Source: a phage. Taken from it: a stretch of DNA of 64,000 nt. Numbering within the stretch: position 1 is the stretch's first letter; each line of letters opens with the position of its first letter. The translations under genes and the position numbers were made by a program. Below the pieces are notes generated by a model. That model saw only the letters and a program-made list of their open reading frames with translations, ran no database searches and was not told where the DNA came from. Shown here in pieces: positions 2,998 through 52,544 of this stretch. The stretch lies in sequence record PZ452606.1. One strand, 5' to 3'.

Positions 2998-3233
2998 AGT
3001 ACGCCATACACCCTTTGTGCTTCAACTAATCCATCAAAATCCAGTTTAAGATGCGATATTTGATCGCCATCACCTGGATTCACAATTACTAATACTGAAC
3101 GAGGAGTTTCGGTAATAACACGAACCGATGTTTCAGGAAATCGTTCAGAAACCTTATTTACCAATTCCTGCGCAAATAGCTTAACTTTTTCTTGGAATTC
3201 TTTAACAGTAATCGGTTTTTCACTTAGCAGCAT
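2994..3233 (-). CDS. hypothetical protein
   Basis: ORF with GAGGAAAA SD; early promoter upstream. Confidence 0.5.
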   Translation of the reverse strand: MLLSEKPITVKEFQEKVKLFAQELVNKVSERFPETSVRVITETPRSVLVIVNPGDGDQISHLKLDFDGLVEAQRVYGVL

Positions 3234-10033: not shown

Positions 10034-12297
10034 TACAATTTACACGCTGCACAATCGTCGGCTTTTGGAGTTTCTATTTCATAATCATCAGTACCAGAAC
10101 CATCACGGGTATTATGATAATAGAAATTTTTTCCGCCAAAATACCAAAAATACAAAAGGTCATCAATCATTATTGACATTGGAACCTTTCCTTTTGGAAA
10201 AATCTGTGGGTCATAATATGTATTCGCCGAAGCTGATTGACAAACCCATTTCAGCATAATAGCTACCTGCGTAAGATAAGGTTTATTACCTTTCTTAGCT
10301 AATTTCCATGTATAGTCGTAAAGGTCTATGTTATGCTCAATATTGGGCACGACTTGATTAAAGGAGCCCTCTTTTGATTCTTTAACAGAGACTGGTCCAC
10401 GTGGAGGCTCGATACCGTTTGTACTGTTAGAAACTTGGGAAGATGACTCACATGGCATAAGTGCTGATAATGTGCTATTACGGATGCCAAAGAGCTTAAG
10501 GTCTTCCCGCAGCGACGACCAGTCACAAACGTATTTTGGAGCTGCGATTTGGTCAATCTTTTTATTGTACCAGTCGATAGGTAATTCGCCTCGAGACCAA
10601 CGAGTGTCTGAATAATATTCGCAAGGTCCTTTTTCTTTGGCGAGCTTAATGGATGCTTTAATGAGTCCATACTGTAATCTCTCAAATAGTTCATGTGTTA
10701 AATCGTTAGCATCTTCATAAGAAGCAAAGTTACTTGCCAGCCAAGCTGCATAGTTGGTAACACCCACACCGAGGTTACGGCGCTTTTTAGCTTTTTCTGC
10801 TTCAGGAACTGGATATCCTTGGTAATCCAAAAGATTATCAAGAGCACGAACTTGGACTTCTGCCAATTCATTAATTTTATCTTGGTCTTGCCAATCGAAG
10901 TTATCCAGCACAAATGCAGATAACGTGCACAATCCAATTTCAGCATCGGGGCTATTCACATCATTTGTTGGAATAGCAATTTCACAGCACAAGTTACTCT
11001 GACGAATAGGTGCCTTTTCACGAATAAATGGAGTATAGTTATTCGTATTATCAATGAACTGCACATAAATCCTTGCTGTTCCTGAGCGTTCAGTCATGAG
11101 CAATTCAAATAGTTCACGGGCTTTAATGCGCTTTTTACGAATATTAGGGTCTTTTTCTGCTGCTTCGTATAATTCACGGAAACGGTCTTGGTCTTTAAAA
11201 TAAGAATAATAAAGCTCGCCACCCATTTCATGCGGACTGAACAAAGTAATGTAGTCGTTCTTTCCAAAACGTTCCATCATTAGATCATTCAGTTGAACAC
11301 CATAATCCATATGACGAATGCGGTTTTCTTCTACGCCTTTGTTATTTTTCAAAACGAGAAGATTTTCAACTTCCAAATGCCAAATAGGATAATAAGCAGT
11401 AGCAGCGCCGCCACGAATTCCACCCTGTGAGCATGATTTAACTGCAGTCTGAAAATGTTTCCAAAAAGGAATAACACCGGTATGGCGTACTTCACCCATG
11501 CCAATCTTAGAACCTTCGGCACGAATCATACCAACGTTAATACCAATTCCAGCGCGTTTAGAGATATATTCAACAATTGAAGCGGAAGCCTTATTGATAG
11601 ACTTCAGCGAATCACCTGCCTCAATAACAACACATGAACTAAACTGTCGAGTCGGAGTACGACAACCAGCCATAATAGGAGTTGGCAGTGAAATCTGTCG
11701 AGTAGATACTGCTTCATAAAAACGGATAACATGTTTTAGTCTATCAACAGGTTCATCTTGATGCAGTGCCATTCCAATAGCCATAAATGCAAACTGTGGA
11801 GTTTCATAAATTTGACCAGTGGTTTTATCTTTAACTAGATATTTTTCTTTTAATTGCATCGCCCCGGAATAAGTAAATTCCATATCCCGCTCGTGCTTAA
11901 TTTTTGATTCTAAAAATGTAATTTCTTCTGCTGAATATTTTGACAATAATTCAGGGTCATATTTACCTGCATTTACACAATAAGAAATATGGTCAATAAA
12001 TGAACGCGGTTCATACTGCCCATAAACATGCTTACGAAGAGCAAACATTAAACAACGTGCAGCTACATATTGGTAATCAGGCTCTTCAACCGAAATAGAA
12101 TTCGCAGCGGCCTTAATGACAATAGTCTGAATATCATCAGTTGTCATTCCATCACGGAGATAAGATTTAATATTTTCATATAATTCATAAGGATCTACTG
12201 ATGTTCCTTCAGCTGCCCAAGATAAAACTTTAATAATTTTTTGTGGGTCAAAGCTCTGAGAAACACCACTACTTTTGATAACATTAATTAATTGCAT
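10033..12297 (-). CDS. nrdA: ribonucleotide reductase large subunit
   Basis: 754 aa; ATP-cone N-terminus and class I RNR catalytic residues. Confidence 0.95.
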   Translation of the reverse strand: MQLINVIKSSGVSQSFDPQKIIKVLSWAAEGTSVDPYELYENIKSYLRDGMTTDDIQTIVIKAAANSISVEEPDYQYVAARCLMFALRKHVYGQYEPRSFIDHISYCVNAGKYDPELLSKYSAEEITFLESKIKHERDMEFTYSGAMQLKEKYLVKDKTTGQIYETPQFAFMAIGMALHQDEPVDRLKHVIRFYEAVSTRQISLPTPIMAGCRTPTRQFSSCVVIEAGDSLKSINKASASIVEYISKRAGIGINVGMIRAEGSKIGMGEVRHTGVIPFWKHFQTAVKSCSQGGIRGGAATAYYPIWHLEVENLLVLKNNKGVEENRIRHMDYGVQLNDLMMERFGKNDYITLFSPHEMGGELYYSYFKDQDRFRELYEAAEKDPNIRKKRIKARELFELLMTERSGTARIYVQFIDNTNNYTPFIREKAPIRQSNLCCEIAIPTNDVNSPDAEIGLCTLSAFVLDNFDWQDQDKINELAEVQVRALDNLLDYQGYPVPEAEKAKKRRNLGVGVTNYAAWLASNFASYEDANDLTHELFERLQYGLIKASIKLAKEKGPCEYYSDTRWSRGELPIDWYNKKIDQIAAPKYVCDWSSLREDLKLFGIRNSTLSALMPCESSSQVSNSTNGIEPPRGPVSVKESKEGSFNQVVPNIEHNIDLYDYTWKLAKKGNKPYLTQVAIMLKWVCQSASANTYYDPQIFPKGKVPMSIMIDDLLYFWYFGGKNFYYHNTRDGSGTDDYEIETPKADDCAACKL

Positions 12298-19761: not shown

Positions 19762-22700
19762 ATGGCCGAGATTAAAAGAAAGTTCAGAGCAGAAGATGGT
19801 CTGGACGCAGGTGGTGATAAAATAATCAACGTAGCTTTAGCTGATCGTGCCGTAGGAACTGACGGTGTTAACGTTGATTACTTAATTCAAGAAAACACAG
19901 TTCAACAATACGATCCAACTCGTGGATATTTAAAAGATTTTGTAATCATTTATGATAACCGCTTTTGGGCTGCTATAAATGATATTCCAAAACCGGCAGG
20001 AGCTTTTAATAGCGGACGCTGGAGAGCATTACGTACCGATGCTAACTGGATTACGGTTTCATCTGGTTCATATCAATTAAAATCTGGTGAAGCTATTTCG
20101 GTTAACACCGCAGCTGGTAATGATATTACATTTACTTTACCATCTACCCCAATTGACGGTGATACTATCGTTCTCCAAGATATTGGAGGAAAACCTGGAG
20201 TTAACCAAGTTTTAATTGTAGCTCCAGTGCAAAGTATTGTAAACTTCAGAGGTCAACAAGTACGTTCAGTACTAATGACTCATCCAAAATCGCAGATAGT
20301 TTTAATTTTTAGTAATCGTCTGTGGCAAATGTATGTTGCCGATTATAGTAGAGAAGCTGTCGTTGTAACACCAGCAAGTCTCTATCAGGCGCAATCTAAT
20401 GATTTTATCGTACGTAGATTTACTTCTGCTGCACCAATTAATGTTAAACTTCCAAGATTTGCTAATCATGGCGATATTATTAATTTCGTTGATTTAGATA
20501 AACTGAATCCACTTTATCATACAATTGTTACTACATACGATGAAACGACTTCAGTACAAGAAGTTGGAACTCATTCCATTGAAGGCCGTACATCAATTGA
20601 CGGTTTCTTGATGTTTGATGATAATGAGAAATTGTGGAGATTGTTTGACGGGGATAGTAAAGCACGTTTACGCATTATAACGACTAATTCTAATATTCGT
20701 CCAAACGAAGAAGTCATGGTATTTGGTGCGAATAACGGAACAACTCAAACAATTGAACTTCAGCTTCCAACTAATATTTCTGTTGGTGATACTGTTAAAA
20801 TTTCCATGAATTACATGAGAAAAGGACAAACAGTTAAAATCAAAGCTGCCGGTGAAGATAAAATTGCTTCTTCGGTTCAATTGTTGCAATTCCCAAAACG
20901 CTCAGAATATCCGCCTGAAGCTGAATGGGTTACAGTCCAAGAATTAGTTTTTAACGGTGAAACTAATTATGTTCCAGTTTTGCAACTTGCTTACATAGAA
21001 GATTCTGATGGAAAATATTGGGTTGTACAGCAAAACGTTCCAACTGTAGAAAGAGTAGACTCTTTAAATGATTCCACTAGAGCAAGATTAGGCGTAATTG
21101 CTTTAGCTACACAAGCTCAAGCTAACGTCGATTTAGAAAATTCTCCACAAAAAGAATTAGCAATTACTCCAGAAACATTAGCTAACCGTACTGCTACAGA
21201 AACTCGTAGAGGTATCGCAAGAATAGCAACTACTGCTCAAGTGAATCAGAACACCACATTCTCTTTTGCTGATGATATTATCATCACTCCTAAAAAGCTG
21301 AATGAAAGAACTGCTACAGAAACTCGCAGAGGTGTTGCAGAAATTGCTACTCAGCAAGAAACAAACGCAGGAACAGATGATACTACAATCATTACTCCTA
21401 AAAAGCTTCAAGCTCGTCAAGGTTCTGAATCATTATCCGGTATTGTAACTTTTGTATCTACTGCAAGTGCTACTCCAGCTTCTAGCCGTGAATTAAATGG
21501 TACGAATGTTTATAATAAAAACACTAATAATTTAGTTGTTTCACCTAAAGCTTTGGATCAGTATAAAGCTACTCCAACGCAGCAAGGTGCAGTAATTTTA
21601 GCAGTTGAAAGTGAAGTAATTGCTGGACAAAGTCAGGAAGGATGGGCAAATGCTGTTGTAACGCCAGAAACGTTACATAAAAAGACATCAACTGATGGAA
21701 GAATTGGTTTAATTGAAATTGCTACGCAAAGTGAAGTTAATACAGGAACTGATTATACTCGTGCAGTCACTCCTAAAACTTTAAATGACCGTAGAGCAAC
21801 TGAAAGTTTAAGTGGTATAGCTGAAATTGCTACACAAGTTGAATTCGACGCAGGCGTCGACGATACTCGTATCTCTACACCATTAAAAATTAAAACCAGA
21901 TTTAATAGTACTGATCGTACTTCTGTTGTTGCTCTATCTGGATTAGTTGAATCAGGAACTCTCTGGGACCATTATACCCTTAATATTCTTGAAGCAAATG
22001 AGACACAGCGTGGTACACTTCGTGTAGCTACACAGGTCGAAGCTGCTGCAGGAACATTAGATAATGTTTTAATAACTCCTAAAAAGCTTTTAGGTACTAA
22101 ATCTACCGAAGCACAAGAAGGTGTTATTAAAGTTGCAACCCAGTCTGAAACCGTAGCTGGAACATCAGCAAATACTGCTGTATCTCCAAAAAATTTAAAA
22201 TGGATTGTGCAGAGTGAACCTACTTGGGCAGCTACTACTGCAATAAGAGGTTTTGTTAAAACTTCATCTGGTTCAATTACATTCGTTGGTAATGATACAG
22301 TCGGTTCTACCCAAGATTTAGAACTATATGAGAAAAATAGCTATGCAGTATCACCATATGAATTAAACCGTGTATTAGCAAATTATTTGCCGTTAAAAGC
22401 AAAAGCTGCTGATACAAATTTATTGGATGGTCTAGATTCATCTCAGTTCATTCGTAGGGATATTGCACAGACGGTTAATGGTTCACTAACCTTAACCCAA
22501 CAAACGAATCTGAGTGCCCCTCTTGTATCATCTAGTACTGCTACGTTTGGTGGTTCAGTTTCGGCAAATAGTACATTAACTATTTCTAATACTGGAACGG
22601 CAACTCGTCTGATTTTTGAGAAAGGACCTCAAACTGGAACTAACCCAGCACAGACGATGACTATCAGAGTTTGGGGAAATCAGTTTGGTGGTGGATCAGA

Positions 22701-30672: not shown

Positions 30673-30945
30673 TTATTTGTTCGTATACATCTCTAGATAT
30701 CGATATACACCCTCAAAACCCTCGTTGAATTCGTTGATGAGGGTTTTCTTATCTTCTTGAGTTAATTCAGAAACAATTTTACGGAATGAATTCTGATTTA
30801 ATTTTCTACCTTCATGCGTTACTCCAATCTCATTCAGAAATGCAATAAAATTAGCACGATTCTCAACAATATCTTCTCTGGAAAATTTAATCAAAATAGA
30901 CGCAACAGTAATAATTTCACGAACTGTATCAATGTTTTTATTCAT
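30673..30945 (-). CDS. asiA: anti-sigma70 factor AsiA
   Basis: 90 aa; matches T4 AsiA from memory. Confidence 0.95.
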   Translation of the reverse strand: MNKNIDTVREIITVASILIKFSREDIVENRANFIAFLNEIGVTHEGRKLNQNSFRKIVSELTQEDKKTLINEFNEGFEGVYRYLEMYTNK

Positions 30946-32764: not shown

Positions 32765-33400
32765 TCACAGTTCAGATGCTACAGTGATTACTGCTTCAAT
32801 GTTTTCTTCCGAGCGTTTAATGTCAAGATACACATTACCGTTTTTAGCGATTTTACATGACATTCCGATATCAGTAAATTTCTGAATATGATGTTCCATC
32901 ATTTTGTATCCAAAAATTCGCATATTTCCATTGTTGTTAATTTCAAAATTACGAATTCCATGAGTGCGTTTTTCTAAAATAGCGAGATAGTTACTGCGAT
33001 AAGTTTCAACCTTTTTAAGAACAAATCCATTTTCATCTAAAAGTTTTAACATGAGGTCTTTATCTTCTTCCATATCGGAAGTAATCTCGCGAGCTTTACG
33101 AGTTGCTCGTTTTTTCAGTAGTTCCGGAGCATTTTCCTGTGCGTATAAAGTTGCTGCGTTTGAAATAATATCTTGAGCTTCACCTGTAATGATTAATCCA
33201 TCACCAGATTTCTCCACCAGGCCTTTTTTAATCAATACCCCAATATTACTATTAACTACTGCGTTACCTAAATCTGGATGCACCTCACGAACTTCTGCAG
33301 CTGTAATGAAATCTTTCTTAGCAATAGTAATTAAAATCGCAGCAGTTTTTTCATTCAGAACATCGTTAGAAGCTTTGATGATGTAAGTTACTTTAGACAT
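32765..33400 (-). CDS. motA: middle transcription activator MotA
   Basis: 211 aa; matches T4 MotA; early promoter upstream. Confidence 0.95.
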   Translation of the reverse strand: MSKVTYIIKASNDVLNEKTAAILITIAKKDFITAAEVREVHPDLGNAVVNSNIGVLIKKGLVEKSGDGLIITGEAQDIISNAATLYAQENAPELLKKRATRKAREITSDMEEDKDLMLKLLDENGFVLKKVETYRSNYLAILEKRTHGIRNFEINNNGNMRIFGYKMMEHHIQKFTDIGMSCKIAKNGNVYLDIKRSEENIEAVITVASEL

Positions 33401-49413: not shown

Positions 49414-49721
49414 CGGAAAGTCCCTGCAATTGGAATACTAACAATACGCCCAGTATCTAGAATTCGTTGATATAATCTTTGTGTATCTACATCAGGCTTA
49501 ACATGTTTAACTTCTATTTTATTAAACCAAAACTTGCGTGGAGTCTCAACTAATCTTGGAATTCCTTTACCTAAAGCTAATCGATACTGCTCTTTAAGAG
49601 TAGTAAATACTTTATCAGCAATATTCCATTCAAAAAATACAGCAGGACGATGTTCATCAAGCGGAACTGGCGCCGTAAATCCGTCTTTGTCTCGGTAAAC
49701 TATCGCATATACATAAACCAT
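49410..49721 (-). CDS. hypothetical protein
   Basis: 103 aa; 4-nt overlap with dda. Confidence 0.5.
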   Translation of the reverse strand: MVYVYAIVYRDKDGFTAPVPLDEHRPAVFFEWNIADKVFTTLKEQYRLALGKGIPRLVETPRKFWFNKIEVKHVKPDVDTQRLYQRILDTGRIVSIPIAGTFR

Positions 49722-49722
49722 A

Positions 49723-50469
49723 TTATCCTCGGATAAGTTTAAAAATTGAACAATTCAGCGGATATCCTCTTTTCAGTTTAAGTTTATCAATAAAAGACAA
49801 GTTTTGATACCGCTCTACACCTTGAATAATTTTATCACACATATCATATTGCATTTCTGCTTCTGACAACTTTTTCACAATTTTCCAATCCGAGCCTTTA
49901 AGAAGAACGTTCAGTTTAACAACTTCAGCGCCTTCTGCTATGCGAGAACCATCAATACGAGCTTTAAGTGCTATAATCCTTAGCTTAATGTCAGAGGTCT
50001 GTTTTGATTTAGAAAGCTGAGAAATGTGTTCAATTCGATTTTCACGTTTTTTCTGTATAGCTTTAATTTGATTATAAGTCTTTTTGATTTTAGCCCATTT
50101 CTTTTCATCTAAATTTAGTTTATGAACTTTTTTCGCAGATGAACGACCAATTCGCAAAGCAAATAAATCACGCTTTTCAATTAACTCTTCTAAAGTATAA
50201 TCAGAACGAAATGTATTATACTTTTTCTTTACTGCAATAACATTTCCTTTAATGTATCCAACGTTATTATCAAAACGTTCTAATGATAATTTCTCTCCTT
50301 CAATACGATTATCAAAAGGTTCTCCCGAGTAAGCACAAACTTTTTGATCTAAAATGTTCTTAATGTAATTGAAGTCTAAGTTAAAATCTTTAGAACGTCT
50401 TTTTGCAGATGCCTGAGTATGCTCTAAACGACGTTTAATTTTACGAATTTGGTTATTAGACAGCTTCAT
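49723..50469 (-). CDS. srd: Srd-like protein
   Basis: 248 aa basic protein at the T4 srd position; early promoter upstream. Confidence 0.5.
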   Translation of the reverse strand: MKLSNNQIRKIKRRLEHTQASAKRRSKDFNLDFNYIKNILDQKVCAYSGEPFDNRIEGEKLSLERFDNNVGYIKGNVIAVKKKYNTFRSDYTLEELIEKRDLFALRIGRSSAKKVHKLNLDEKKWAKIKKTYNQIKAIQKKRENRIEHISQLSKSKQTSDIKLRIIALKARIDGSRIAEGAEVVKLNVLLKGSDWKIVKKLSEAEMQYDMCDKIIQGVERYQNLSFIDKLKLKRGYPLNCSIFKLIRG

Positions 50470-50505
50470 ATTTTTCTCACATCTTACGGACGGTTAACTA
50501 CTTGT

Positions 50506-50534
50506 ACTATAACATTTTTACTTTAACTTGTAAA
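50506..50534 (-). promoter_or_regulatory. early promoter upstream of srd-like gene
   Basis: TTTACA-17-TATAGT. Confidence 0.5.
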
Positions 50535-50547
50535 CAACTTTATGTAA

Positions 50548-50575
50548 AAATGCTTTAAAAATTTCATGGTATAAT
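50548..50575 (+). promoter_or_regulatory. MotA-type middle promoter consensus in antisense orientation
   Basis: aaaTGCTTTA, 12 nt, TATAAT on plus strand, pointing into modA antisense. Confidence 0.3.
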
Positions 50576-50592
50576 GAATCTAAGTCCTTCCA

Positions 50593-51195
50593 TTATAGAT
50601 TAAATCCTTCAAAATCAAGAGTATAGATAGTGTATGTTGAATACTTTTTGTACTCATATCTATCTGCAATTCTAAATACACTTCCAGCTGGTATCATTAC
50701 TTCTTGTTCATCTGAAACTAATTCCATATTACGATAACGATGGCTATCCGGAAACTTAAAGTTTGGATTGTATTCTTTACAGCGTAGAGCTTTTATAGCA
50801 TACTCCTGGAAATTGAATACCATAGGAGCTTTGAATTCAAAAATAACTTGTGTGTTATACTCTAAACCGGAAGCAAAATGTAGAGCTATATTTTTATCAT
50901 ATGAAGCTGATACTACTTTATCAAATGTAATAATATCAATTCCTTGATTTAACACTTGCTTAGTCTCGACTGGAACACCTCTCCAAAGAGGTTTATCGTT
51001 TGGAACCAAACGAGATTTGATTATTTCATTTAACCAAGTATGGTCATCTGGTTTGTTGGTAATACAATGAATTAAAAGTTCAATTTCAGATAAATTAAAC
51101 CCTTCAGAAAGTAATTCTTCACGAATAGAAGCACGCACCGATGCATCCATTGATTTTATTTTAAAATCTTTTAGTTGCATTACTGAGTATTTCAT
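50593..51195 (-). CDS. modA: ADP-ribosyltransferase ModA
   Basis: 200 aa, T4 ModA length; tandem with ModB paralog. Confidence 0.7.
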   Translation of the reverse strand: MKYSVMQLKDFKIKSMDASVRASIREELLSEGFNLSEIELLIHCITNKPDDHTWLNEIIKSRLVPNDKPLWRGVPVETKQVLNQGIDIITFDKVVSASYDKNIALHFASGLEYNTQVIFEFKAPMVFNFQEYAIKALRCKEYNPNFKFPDSHRYRNMELVSDEQEVMIPAGSVFRIADRYEYKKYSTYTIYTLDFEGFNL

Positions 51196-51815
51196 TCAAC
51201 TACCTCAATATCATAAACTTTAAATGTTCCAAATGAATCGTGTAATTTTTCTTTTGAAATAGAAGTTATTTTATACTTTCCAATTGGAATCATCCATTCT
51301 TGTTCATGTACAATCATCATTAAGTTATCAGTACGCTCTGAATCTAATCCATCAGTGTCTTCATACGTGTACTTAAACTCAGTATTAGGAGAAGAAAGTA
51401 TAATATCGCTGATATGGTCAGAGTAATTAAAAGCTTTATCAGTTTTTAAACGAAGTATTGTTTCAGTGAAATATTCAGCATAAGAAAAAGAACACGCTGT
51501 ATGCAAACTAGTAGTAAATGAATCTACCCTGTTCGTTGAAAACACTTCTCCAACTTGTAAATCTTTAATAAGTTCTTTTGTCGATTTTGATATACCACGA
51601 TATAGCTGATAAGGTGATTTAGTTAAATGCTTTTTAACGATTTTATTCAACTGCCGATGAAGAGCTTCATTCTTTTTTGCTTCCATACATTGCCAAAGAA
51701 CAGACTGCTCAAAGTCAGTAAATTTTTCACAGACTTTTTTATACATATCATATTGAAAATCAACGCTTTCAGCTTTTATAGATAACTGTTCAACATCTGC
51801 AGGATTAATAATCAT
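51192..51815 (-). CDS. modB: ADP-ribosyltransferase ModB
   Basis: 207 aa, T4 ModB length; 4-nt overlap with modA. Confidence 0.7.
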   Translation of the reverse strand: MIINPADVEQLSIKAESVDFQYDMYKKVCEKFTDFEQSVLWQCMEAKKNEALHRQLNKIVKKHLTKSPYQLYRGISKSTKELIKDLQVGEVFSTNRVDSFTTSLHTACSFSYAEYFTETILRLKTDKAFNYSDHISDIILSSPNTEFKYTYEDTDGLDSERTDNLMMIVHEQEWMIPIGKYKITSISKEKLHDSFGTFKVYDIEVVE

Positions 51816-51841
51816 GATAGCCTCCGTATACTTCAGAAGCT

Positions 51842-51870
51842 ATCATATCATCGTTAGAAAGGAAAGTAAA
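51842..51870 (-). promoter_or_regulatory. early promoter upstream of modB
   Basis: TTTACT-17-TATGAT. Confidence 0.5.
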
Positions 51871-51882
51871 CAACTTTTTGAA

Positions 51883-52065
51883 TTATTTTGCCCAGGGAGC
51901 CCAAGGCGGAGGGTCAAGATGGTATGAAGCTAGTTCTTCTAGAAGAGCATCTGGGGCTTTAATTCCATAATTCTGTAATACTATACGGTACTCTTTCTTA
52001 TAATCACTAGAATCATTCTGGATATTCGTAGAATGATTATCTTCTAACATCTCAAATAAATCCAT
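51883..52065 (-). CDS. hypothetical protein
   Basis: 60 aa ORF. Confidence 0.4.
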   Translation of the reverse strand: MDLFEMLEDNHSTNIQNDSSDYKKEYRIVLQNYGIKAPDALLEELASYHLDPPPWAPWAK

Positions 52066-52073
52066 ATTAATTC

Positions 52074-52544
52074 CTAGCGATAAAAACCAAATTTACGATT
52101 AGTTTCAATGATCTTTCTTTCTTCTTCGGACATTCTCCATCGTAGTCCAACATCAAAATGAGCCCAGACCATCTTAACAAATGCATTTATATCTTTAATA
52201 TCTTCAATAATGAATGTTTTACTTTTAGAAGGTTGACTCGCTAATTTAACTTTATCGTCTTCAAACATGTCAAAAAGACCATATTCATGAGCTCTTTTAT
52301 AGCCTTTAATAGTTAAAGCTTCAGAAGAAGAAAATGGTGAATCTGTATTCTGCAAAATATCTTCAGTATGCTTTATAATTAGAATAACATTTTCTGGATA
52401 TTTTCTTTCTTTTATATCTTTAATTAAAATATCCGGATTTTCTGCTAAAGGAATAATTAACGAGCATTTTTTATCAAGTGTATTTACTGATTTACCTTCT
52501 TTAGACATAAATTCTATTGAATATAATTTTGCTACTTCAATCAT
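52074..52544 (-). CDS. hypothetical protein
   Basis: 156 aa ORF. Confidence 0.5.

Follow-up and report, generated by a model that had tools for sequence, protein, structure and literature searches.

A conserved candidate MotA-dependent promoter directed into modA and modB from the srd-modA spacer of T4-like phages

In the phage sequence record PZ452606.1, analysed here as a single stretch of 64,000 nucleotides (nt) and referred to as the window, the spacer between the srd and modA genes carries a plus-strand sequence that is very probably a working MotA-dependent promoter, as judged from its match to known promoters and its conservation. It is directed back into the genes that encode the ADP-ribosyltransferases ModA and ModB. 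The reading preferred here, to which we assign a probability of roughly 0.6, is that the site is a genuine MotA/AsiA-dependent promoter that would counteract the early expression of mod and srd. The site would be a new, or at least uncharacterised, middle promoter; its orientation is unusual and its context is conserved.

The candidate promoter and the strength of its match

The window was derived from a Tequatrovirus and is 98.8% identical to T4 across 50300-50800; this identity, together with the T4 annotation, showed that the gene names modA, modB and srd are correct. The local genes dda, dda.1, srd, modA and modB are all on the minus strand, and the window ModA is 100% identical to the ModA of RB14. 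The srd-modA spacer comprises 123 nt and contains the candidate on its plus strand, aimed at the 3' end of modA. The initial annotation had described a MotA box followed after 12 nt by TATAAT, pointing into the 3' end of modA, antisense to the mod genes and back-to-back with a minus-strand srd early promoter. The box, the spacing and the -10 element were read directly, the direction was borne out by the coordinates and an early-type promoter was found at 50535-50506. The start that had been proposed near 50582 agrees with the A50582 predicted from alignment with the T4 promoter PuvsY. The features of the site and its surroundings are as follows.

50548-50557, plus strand: MotA box AAATGCTTTA, read directly, centred near -30; fits the published consensus (a/t)(a/t)TGCTT(t/c)a (PMC2988021)
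50558-50569, plus strand: 12-nt spacer from the box to the -10, read directly
50567-50575, plus strand: extended -10 TGGTATAAT, with TATAAT at 50570-50575 and TGG in front of it
A50582, plus strand, equivalent to T4 11897: predicted start, placed by comparison with the PuvsY start, 11 nt before the modA stop codon
50582-50595, plus strand: start region AAGTCCTTCCATTA, common to the uvsY/oriF promoter and a site at T4 76000(+)
50506-50535, minus strand: srd early-type promoter GTTTACA-17 nt-TATAGT, with GTTTACA at 50535-50529, TATAGT at 50511-50506 and a predicted start at ~50499
49723-50469, minus strand: srd, from the open reading frame and the T4 annotation; its early promoter adjoins the candidate site
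50593-51195, minus strand: modA, from the open reading frame and the T4 annotation; first gene on the plus-strand antisense path
51192-51815, minus strand: modB, from the open reading frame and the T4 annotation; second gene on the antisense path
51870-51842, minus strand: early-type promoter of the modB-modA unit, TTTACT-17-TATGAT
32768-33400, minus strand: motA, found by tblastn with T4 MotA (97.6% identity, 211 amino acids); encodes the activator required by this promoter class
30676-30945, minus strand: asiA, found by tblastn with T4 AsiA (98.9% identity, 90 amino acids); encodes the co-activator for sigma appropriation

The box and the -10 of the window recur unchanged in T4. The spacers of published middle promoters are 11-13 nt long, with 12 nt the most frequent length (29/50), and the extended -10 of the candidate is the same as the -10 of PuvsY and PnrdC.7. 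At the -35 position (50547-50552, 17 nt upstream of the -10) the sequence is AAAATG, which matches TTGACA at one of six positions, and a sigma70 promoter scan listed no plus-strand promoter at the site. The srd early-type promoter has 10/12 matches, with TG ahead of its -10; its predicted start and that of the candidate are divergent and 83 base pairs (bp) apart. Directly after the modB early promoter, and extending over the start region of modB, there is a 14-bp stem-loop (51847-51813); it was flagged by a terminator scan but lies at the 5' end of a gene.

The loose pattern TGCTTNA-N11-13-TANNNT was found 10 times in the window, twice on the plus strand and eight times on the minus strand, compared to 4.8 expected occurrences. 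Such an enrichment, which is only approximately twofold, is what might be seen if the candidate were a chance match in A+T-rich intergenic DNA, and taken alone it is a weak argument for the site. The site was also scored with a matrix derived from the 58 start sites in Table 1 of PMC2988021, which were extracted from the T4 sequence AF158101; the 50 that aligned cleanly were used. The matrix consisted of the 10-nt box, a term for the spacer and the 9-nt extended -10, and both strands of T4 were scanned. All 58 of the tabulated promoters are on the minus strand.

Of ~338,000 positions on the two T4 strands the candidate ranked first, with 23.9 bits, and ranks 3-20 were all occupied by published, experimentally identified promoters, including PuvsY, PmobB, P31 and P1. 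It was also the top match in the window, where the sole other plus-strand match above 13 bits scored 13.7 bits. Simulated genomes with the dinucleotide statistics of T4 were generated in two sets (60 + 40). No site of at least 22.8 bits was present in these 100 genomes; in the first 60 the maximum was 22.5 bits and sites of at least 20 bits occurred at 0.13 per genome. When the candidate and the T4 76000 site were left aside, the T4 plus strand was at the simulated, or chance, level. With a score above those of all 100 simulated genomes, the candidate is not a chance match.

Conservation and arrangement of the site

The initial annotation had proposed conservation across T-even genomes as a check; the motif was found to be invariant in 18 Tequatrovirus sequences and was kept in six further genera. 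The 18 sequences included the window, T4, T2, RB6, wV7, Shfl2, UFV-AREG1 and six IMG/VR contigs, the latter from a search for relatives that returned six near-identical loci. The box, the -10 and the start region were invariant except for one substitution, at ~+9, in one IMG/VR sequence. Two variable columns fell inside the 12-nt promoter spacer (50561 and 50566), and there were more just 5' of the box. From the box through +14, 3/48 columns were variable, compared to 18/71 in the srd leader and early promoter (Fisher p = 0.007).

Two observations were made in the srd leader itself. An 11-mer at 50482-50492 (TCTTACGGACG on the plus strand, CGTCCGTAAGA on the minus strand) is identical in Tequatro-, Dhaka-, Mosig- and Jiaodavirus, within a 5' leader that is otherwise variable and has indels; in Mineola the same 11-mer is located inside the spacer of the antisense promoter. 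From its sequence it could form a very small hairpin. In T2 (L013) and UFV-AREG1 (L016) there is a 9-nt insertion, CATATTATG on the plus strand, at the start of srd (~50465), so that srd comprises 756 rather than 747 nt.

The srd gene is present in ~1,100 genomes. In the six other genera ModA is 25-36% identical to the window ModA and the order mod-srd-dda.1-dda is maintained. Every mod-srd spacer examined in these genera contained a MotA-type site aimed back into mod, with scores of 12.8-22.8 bits.

Mosigvirus (JK42, RB69): AAATGCTTTA-13-TGTTATAAT, 22.8 bits
Gelderlandvirus: ATTTGCTTTT-13-TGGTATAAT, 20.0 bits
Dhakavirus (AnYang, MX01, NC-G, ABTNLS3): TTTTGCTTTA-12-CGGTATAAT, 14.6-16.8 bits
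Jiaodavirus (Mineola): AAATGCTTTC-13-CGGTATAAT, 14.6 bits
Karamvirus: ATATGCTTTT-13-CGGTATAAT, 13.8 bits
Mosugukvirus (PM2): AAATGCTTTT-12-CTGTATAAT, 12.8 bits

For each site, the probability that a spacer of equal length would reach such a score by chance on the strand in question was ~1e-5 to 4e-3. In each of the five 5.6-kb loci that were examined first there was one antisense-strand match above 11 bits, which was the spacer site. Alignment of the spacers from six genera revealed only TGCTTT and G-TATAATG as invariant blocks, and the seventh genus also has the site. MotA homologs are encoded by phages of the hosts concerned, with identities of 66-67% (Klebsiella) and 53-59% (Enterobacter), and of 50.7% in Dhakavirus AnYang.

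Krischvirus JSE served as a negative control. It has kept the order modB-srd-dda, with a spacer of 61 nt, and had no MotA-type site above 6 bits in or near that spacer and none above 7.6 bits on either strand of the 4.3-kb locus. Neither a motA ortholog nor middle promoters were found in two studies of RB49, a close relative of JSE (PMC1524935), and the JSE locus agrees with the lack of middle promoters reported for the RB49 group. The JSE locus also carries a homing endonuclease gene (L033:176-1096), on the opposite strand, between gene 56 and modB. The presence of the site in seven genera and its absence from JSE support a functional MotA-dependent promoter.

One of these sites has been recorded before. 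The RB69 ortholog is listed as 'Pm:12081 (+)', with a hidden Markov model (HMM) score of 7.9 and the remark '1 bp ins', in Additional file 4 of Nolan et al. 2006 (PMC1524935). RB69 12081-12122 is inside the srd-modA spacer (11996-12148) and reads AAATGCTTTA-13-TGTTATAAT toward modA. The entry therefore denotes the orthologous site; it is a bare coordinate with a low HMM score, given there with no test or cross-phage comparison, and the section of that paper on middle promoters is silent on strand or orientation. A T4 differential RNA sequencing (dRNA-seq) preprint gives 150 start sites, of which 22 are antisense (bioRxiv 10.1101/2024.04.04.588121). Literature searches on T4 antisense and mod-region promoters yielded no description of this T4 promoter; an earlier mention is possible.

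Two arrangements relative to the srd early promoter were observed. The antisense site and the early promoter stand back-to-back in Tequatro-, Dhaka- and Mosigvirus; in T4-like phages the MotA box is at -52 to -58 relative to that promoter, and the polymerase footprints would overlap. Karam- and Gelderlandvirus have an early-type sense promoter (GTTTACA or GTTTACT, 17 nt, TAGAAT) on the other side of the site, interlocked with it face-to-face. Both predicted starts fall on the same base pair (position 3112 of the Karamvirus locus L026; position 1872 of the Gelderlandvirus locus L032), and each -10 is at +7 to +12 of the other promoter. Since they are interlocked and have a common predicted start, these two promoters could not be occupied together.

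This geometry bears on whether the conserved element is a promoter at all, or a binding site at which MotA, or the MotA/AsiA-polymerase complex, blocks the srd early promoter or read-through from modA, with any RNA as a by-product. The overlapping footprints in T4-like phages, the mutually exclusive promoters of Karam- and Gelderlandvirus and the lack of a visible defined RNA product would all suit such a role. In contrast, conservation of the -10 and of the 12-13 nt spacing equals that of the box, which indicates open-complex formation beyond the binding of MotA, and the site is oriented toward mod in all cases. MotA alone is a weak DNA binder according to a passage in PMC2988021. Furthermore, the sense promoter of Mineola is only a weak match, and the pairing of the two promoters is therefore not certain in every genus. 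A binding site without promoter function is unlikely and somewhat disfavoured here, but is hard to separate from the promoter model.

The same comparison was used to assess features of the minus strand. Part of the region upstream of the srd early promoter is shared with the box, and 50508-50557 is spanned by an imperfect 24-nt palindrome, so that conservation might be due to an UP element of the srd promoter or to an mRNA hairpin. Retention of the box as an UP element was ruled out, as in Karam- and Gelderlandvirus the box is on the other side of the promoter and the motif nevertheless persists. A hairpin or terminator of the modA mRNA was rejected; the palindrome folds no better than shuffled sequences (z = -0.97). 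The motif is upstream of the srd start in T4-like phages and within the srd leader in Karam- and Gelderlandvirus, so that no one role in a minus-strand RNA can hold for all genera. Taken as one alternative, a chance match or conservation imposed by a minus-strand feature is highly improbable.

Likeness to PuvsY and other T4 promoters

From -15 to +14 the candidate (window 50567-50595, TGGTATAATGAATCTAAGTCCTTCCATTA) is identical to T4 PuvsY at 27 of 29 positions, with an exact match of 21 nt. The mapped start of PuvsY, T4 115371, is the A that follows the caret in GAATCT^AAGTCC; the candidate has the same context, and its start was placed at A50582 by analogy. The two sites belong to the same class, PuvsY reading TAATGCTTCA-13-TGGTATAAT and the candidate AAATGCTTTA-12-TGGTATAAT, but their settings differ. 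PuvsY is on the minus strand, ahead of the gene that it expresses, and is part of the mapped origin oriF, whereas the candidate is on the plus strand, has no downstream gene, is antisense to early genes and has its nearest annotated origin 4.9 kb away. The core tGGTATAATGrnTCT^AAGyCC is common to four T4 sites, namely the candidate, PuvsY, PnrdC.7 and 76000(+); the remaining published promoters had only background similarity in the start region.

A fuller form of this subfamily motif, tGGTATAATGrnTCT^A(A/G)GTyC..TCCATT, was observed at window 50567-50595, at T4 115371(-), 76000(+) and 53325(-), and in JK42 (L028, L029). The promoter copies within one genome, JK42, are more like each other than like their counterparts in another genus, represented by T4; this likeness hints at concerted evolution or at a function of the start region.

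The second-best T4 match, also on the plus strand and also unlisted, is at AF158101 ~75955-76020 (L004:25955-26020). It reads TAATGCTTTA-13-TGGTATAAT, scored 23.1 bits and has a predicted start at ~76000, in the spacer between gene 3 and gene 2, where it is antisense to the late genes 2 and 4 and aimed at gene 53. Mosigvirus JK42 has a site in the same place, with 13.3 bits and a similar start region (AGGTCTCTTCCATTAAT); the RB69 site nearest to this position is 'Pm:79256 +' (Nolan et al. 2006, PMC1524935).

A further MotA-type promoter, P34i, one of those tabulated in PMC2988021, is the middle promoter of oriG and lies inside the late gene 34; according to the annotation its RNA runs opposite to the enclosing gene, and T4 therefore uses antisense-oriented middle promoters. 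P34i differs from the candidate in that it is inside a late gene, on the strand usual for early and middle transcripts, and primes replication; the candidate is intergenic, on the opposite strand, and faces early genes. The counterpart of P34i in the window (~21965-22010, start at 21964 on the minus strand) reads ATTTGCTTCA-13-GGGTATAAT and was the third-best match in the window, with 21.3 bits.

These likenesses raise the question of whether the candidate is an origin-type primer promoter, at which an R-loop formed just downstream would prime rightward leading-strand synthesis, with the antisense orientation incidental. Both oriF and oriG consist of a middle promoter and an A+T-rich unwinding element (PMC3016281). 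Besides the 27/29 identity to the oriF promoter, an origin would be consistent with the orientation of the oriG primer RNA, likewise opposite to its enclosing gene (PMC3016281; annotation), with the lack of a downstream gene for the candidate to express and with the multiple, incompletely defined usage of T4 origins (PMC3016281). However, the annotated origins are at T4 16763 (oriA), 79355 (oriE), 115321 (oriF) and 152947 (oriG), and none is at the candidate (T4 11897). Identity with the promoter of oriA, the nearest of them, was rejected; oriA uses the minus-strand transcript of gene 56 and is 4.9 kb away. PnrdC.7 contains this core as well, yet lies away from the position given for oriC, near rI.-1 (T4 58.8-59.2 kb), and the shared core is therefore not an origin mark. 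Between genera, conservation extends to the position beside mod and srd but not to the start region. The first 100 nt downstream of the start are 72% A+T, compared to 65% for the window, which is not distinctive, and the downstream DNA is no more A+T-rich than typical T4 DNA. An origin function is regarded as improbable.

The common core also allows that the site is a copied cassette that does little by itself and was distributed or made uniform through recombination among PuvsY, PnrdC.7, the gene 3/gene 2 spacer and the srd-modA spacer. The occurrence of the core at four T4 sites is in keeping with this idea, and the closer likeness of the JK42 promoters to each other than to their T4 counterparts suggests concerted evolution. 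A neutral copy, however, would not hold its position and orientation where ModA identity has fallen to 25-36% and no other block of the spacer is invariant, nor would it vanish precisely in JSE, the relative of a phage with no detectable motA. Such a cassette is considered quite improbable.

Proposed action on mod and srd

The preferred reading, a MotA/AsiA-dependent promoter opposed to early mod and srd expression, would operate as follows. Once MotA and AsiA had accumulated, ~1-2 min after infection, the host sigma70 polymerase would start at ~A50582 and proceed into modA and modB in the convergent direction. The antisense RNA made in this way would be non-coding and unstructured and would lack an intrinsic terminator. 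As the predicted outcome, the toxic early genes to either side of the site would be shut off locally. This outcome could be reached by three routes, which are not mutually exclusive: polymerases starting at the site might collide with those descending the modB-modA early unit from its promoter at 51870-51842; the antisense RNA might pair with mod mRNA; or the srd early promoter might be occluded or outcompeted, which would be obligatory in the genera with face-to-face promoters. If the promoter fires, its direction makes the transcript complementary to modA and modB mRNA, and an antisense RNA that times the expression of ModA and ModB may be at work, since this fits the geometry; RNA pairing is no more plausible than promoter occlusion or collision. 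That the site down-regulates mod and/or srd is given slightly less than an even chance.

ModA is highly toxic to Escherichia coli (PMC2988021), and modA and srd each impair the growth of E. coli when expressed singly (PMC6070864). Two reviews describe the mechanism by which early transcription of T4 is abruptly shut off as not understood (PMC3014915, PMC2988021).

Several results weigh against the preferred reading. Table 1 of PMC2988021, with its 58 identified middle promoters, has no entry near T4 11897; this absence from the 2010 list could reflect a site that was tested and found to be silent, and some good-looking middle promoter sequences are inactive in vivo (PMC2988021). In the flanking coding sequence of the Tequatrovirus set 75/575 columns were variable, and the promoter was not significantly more conserved than this (p = 0.25). 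No plus-strand open reading frame with a ribosome-binding site was conserved between genera, no convincing intrinsic terminator was detected within 1.5 kb of the site in five genera, and the first 139 nt had no structure beyond that of shuffled controls (z = +0.25). The product, if made, would thus be an unstructured, untranslated antisense RNA of undefined length. A mechanism for early shut-off across the whole genome was rejected, as only two plus-strand sites in T4 are above chance.

Downstream of 50582 there is no plus-strand gene until far beyond the relevant region, two weak plus-strand terminator matches at 50977-51013 have poor T tracts, no Rfam family was matched in 49500-52500 at E ≤ 1, and the region of the predicted transcript has a mild bias of C over G.

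Phage promoters that fire back into an upstream gene are known from lambda, where the OOP antisense RNA acts against the 3' end of cII, and from coliphage 186, where face-to-face promoters interfere with each other. They reduce gene expression through RNA pairing or polymerase collision, and they are host sigma70 promoters with defined RNAs or measured interference. These systems provide a working analogy; the candidate differs in that it would need a phage activator and is known here from sequence alone. Its dependence on such an activator would tie its activity to a developmental stage.

On a more tentative level, the site may be a 'reverse' promoter, conserved in the Tevenvirinae and triggered by MotA, through which the stage of infection is switched: at the onset of middle mode it would move polymerase from the srd early promoter to the opposed one, back into the mod genes, and so turn off two toxic effectors together. 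If this proposal is true, antisense middle promoters would make up a small class, with the candidate and the T4 76000 site as members and a common start-region motif, and the candidate would provide the first concrete, sequence-defined mechanism for part of the early shut-off in T4. Should the site prove silent in vivo, no stronger case would be known of a perfect middle promoter sequence without activity.

The middle promoters of T4 are a model for sigma appropriation, and the 58 that have been identified drive genes on one strand. The best match to their consensus in T4 is unlisted, reversed and conserved beside two toxic host-takeover genes, which suggests that MotA may turn genes off as well as on. 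The site makes early shut-off testable at one locus, where the promoter should be separable from its neighbours by changing a few bases of the intergenic DNA. A further question that it touches is how ModA and ModB, which are of interest for RNAylation, are restricted to the first minutes of infection.

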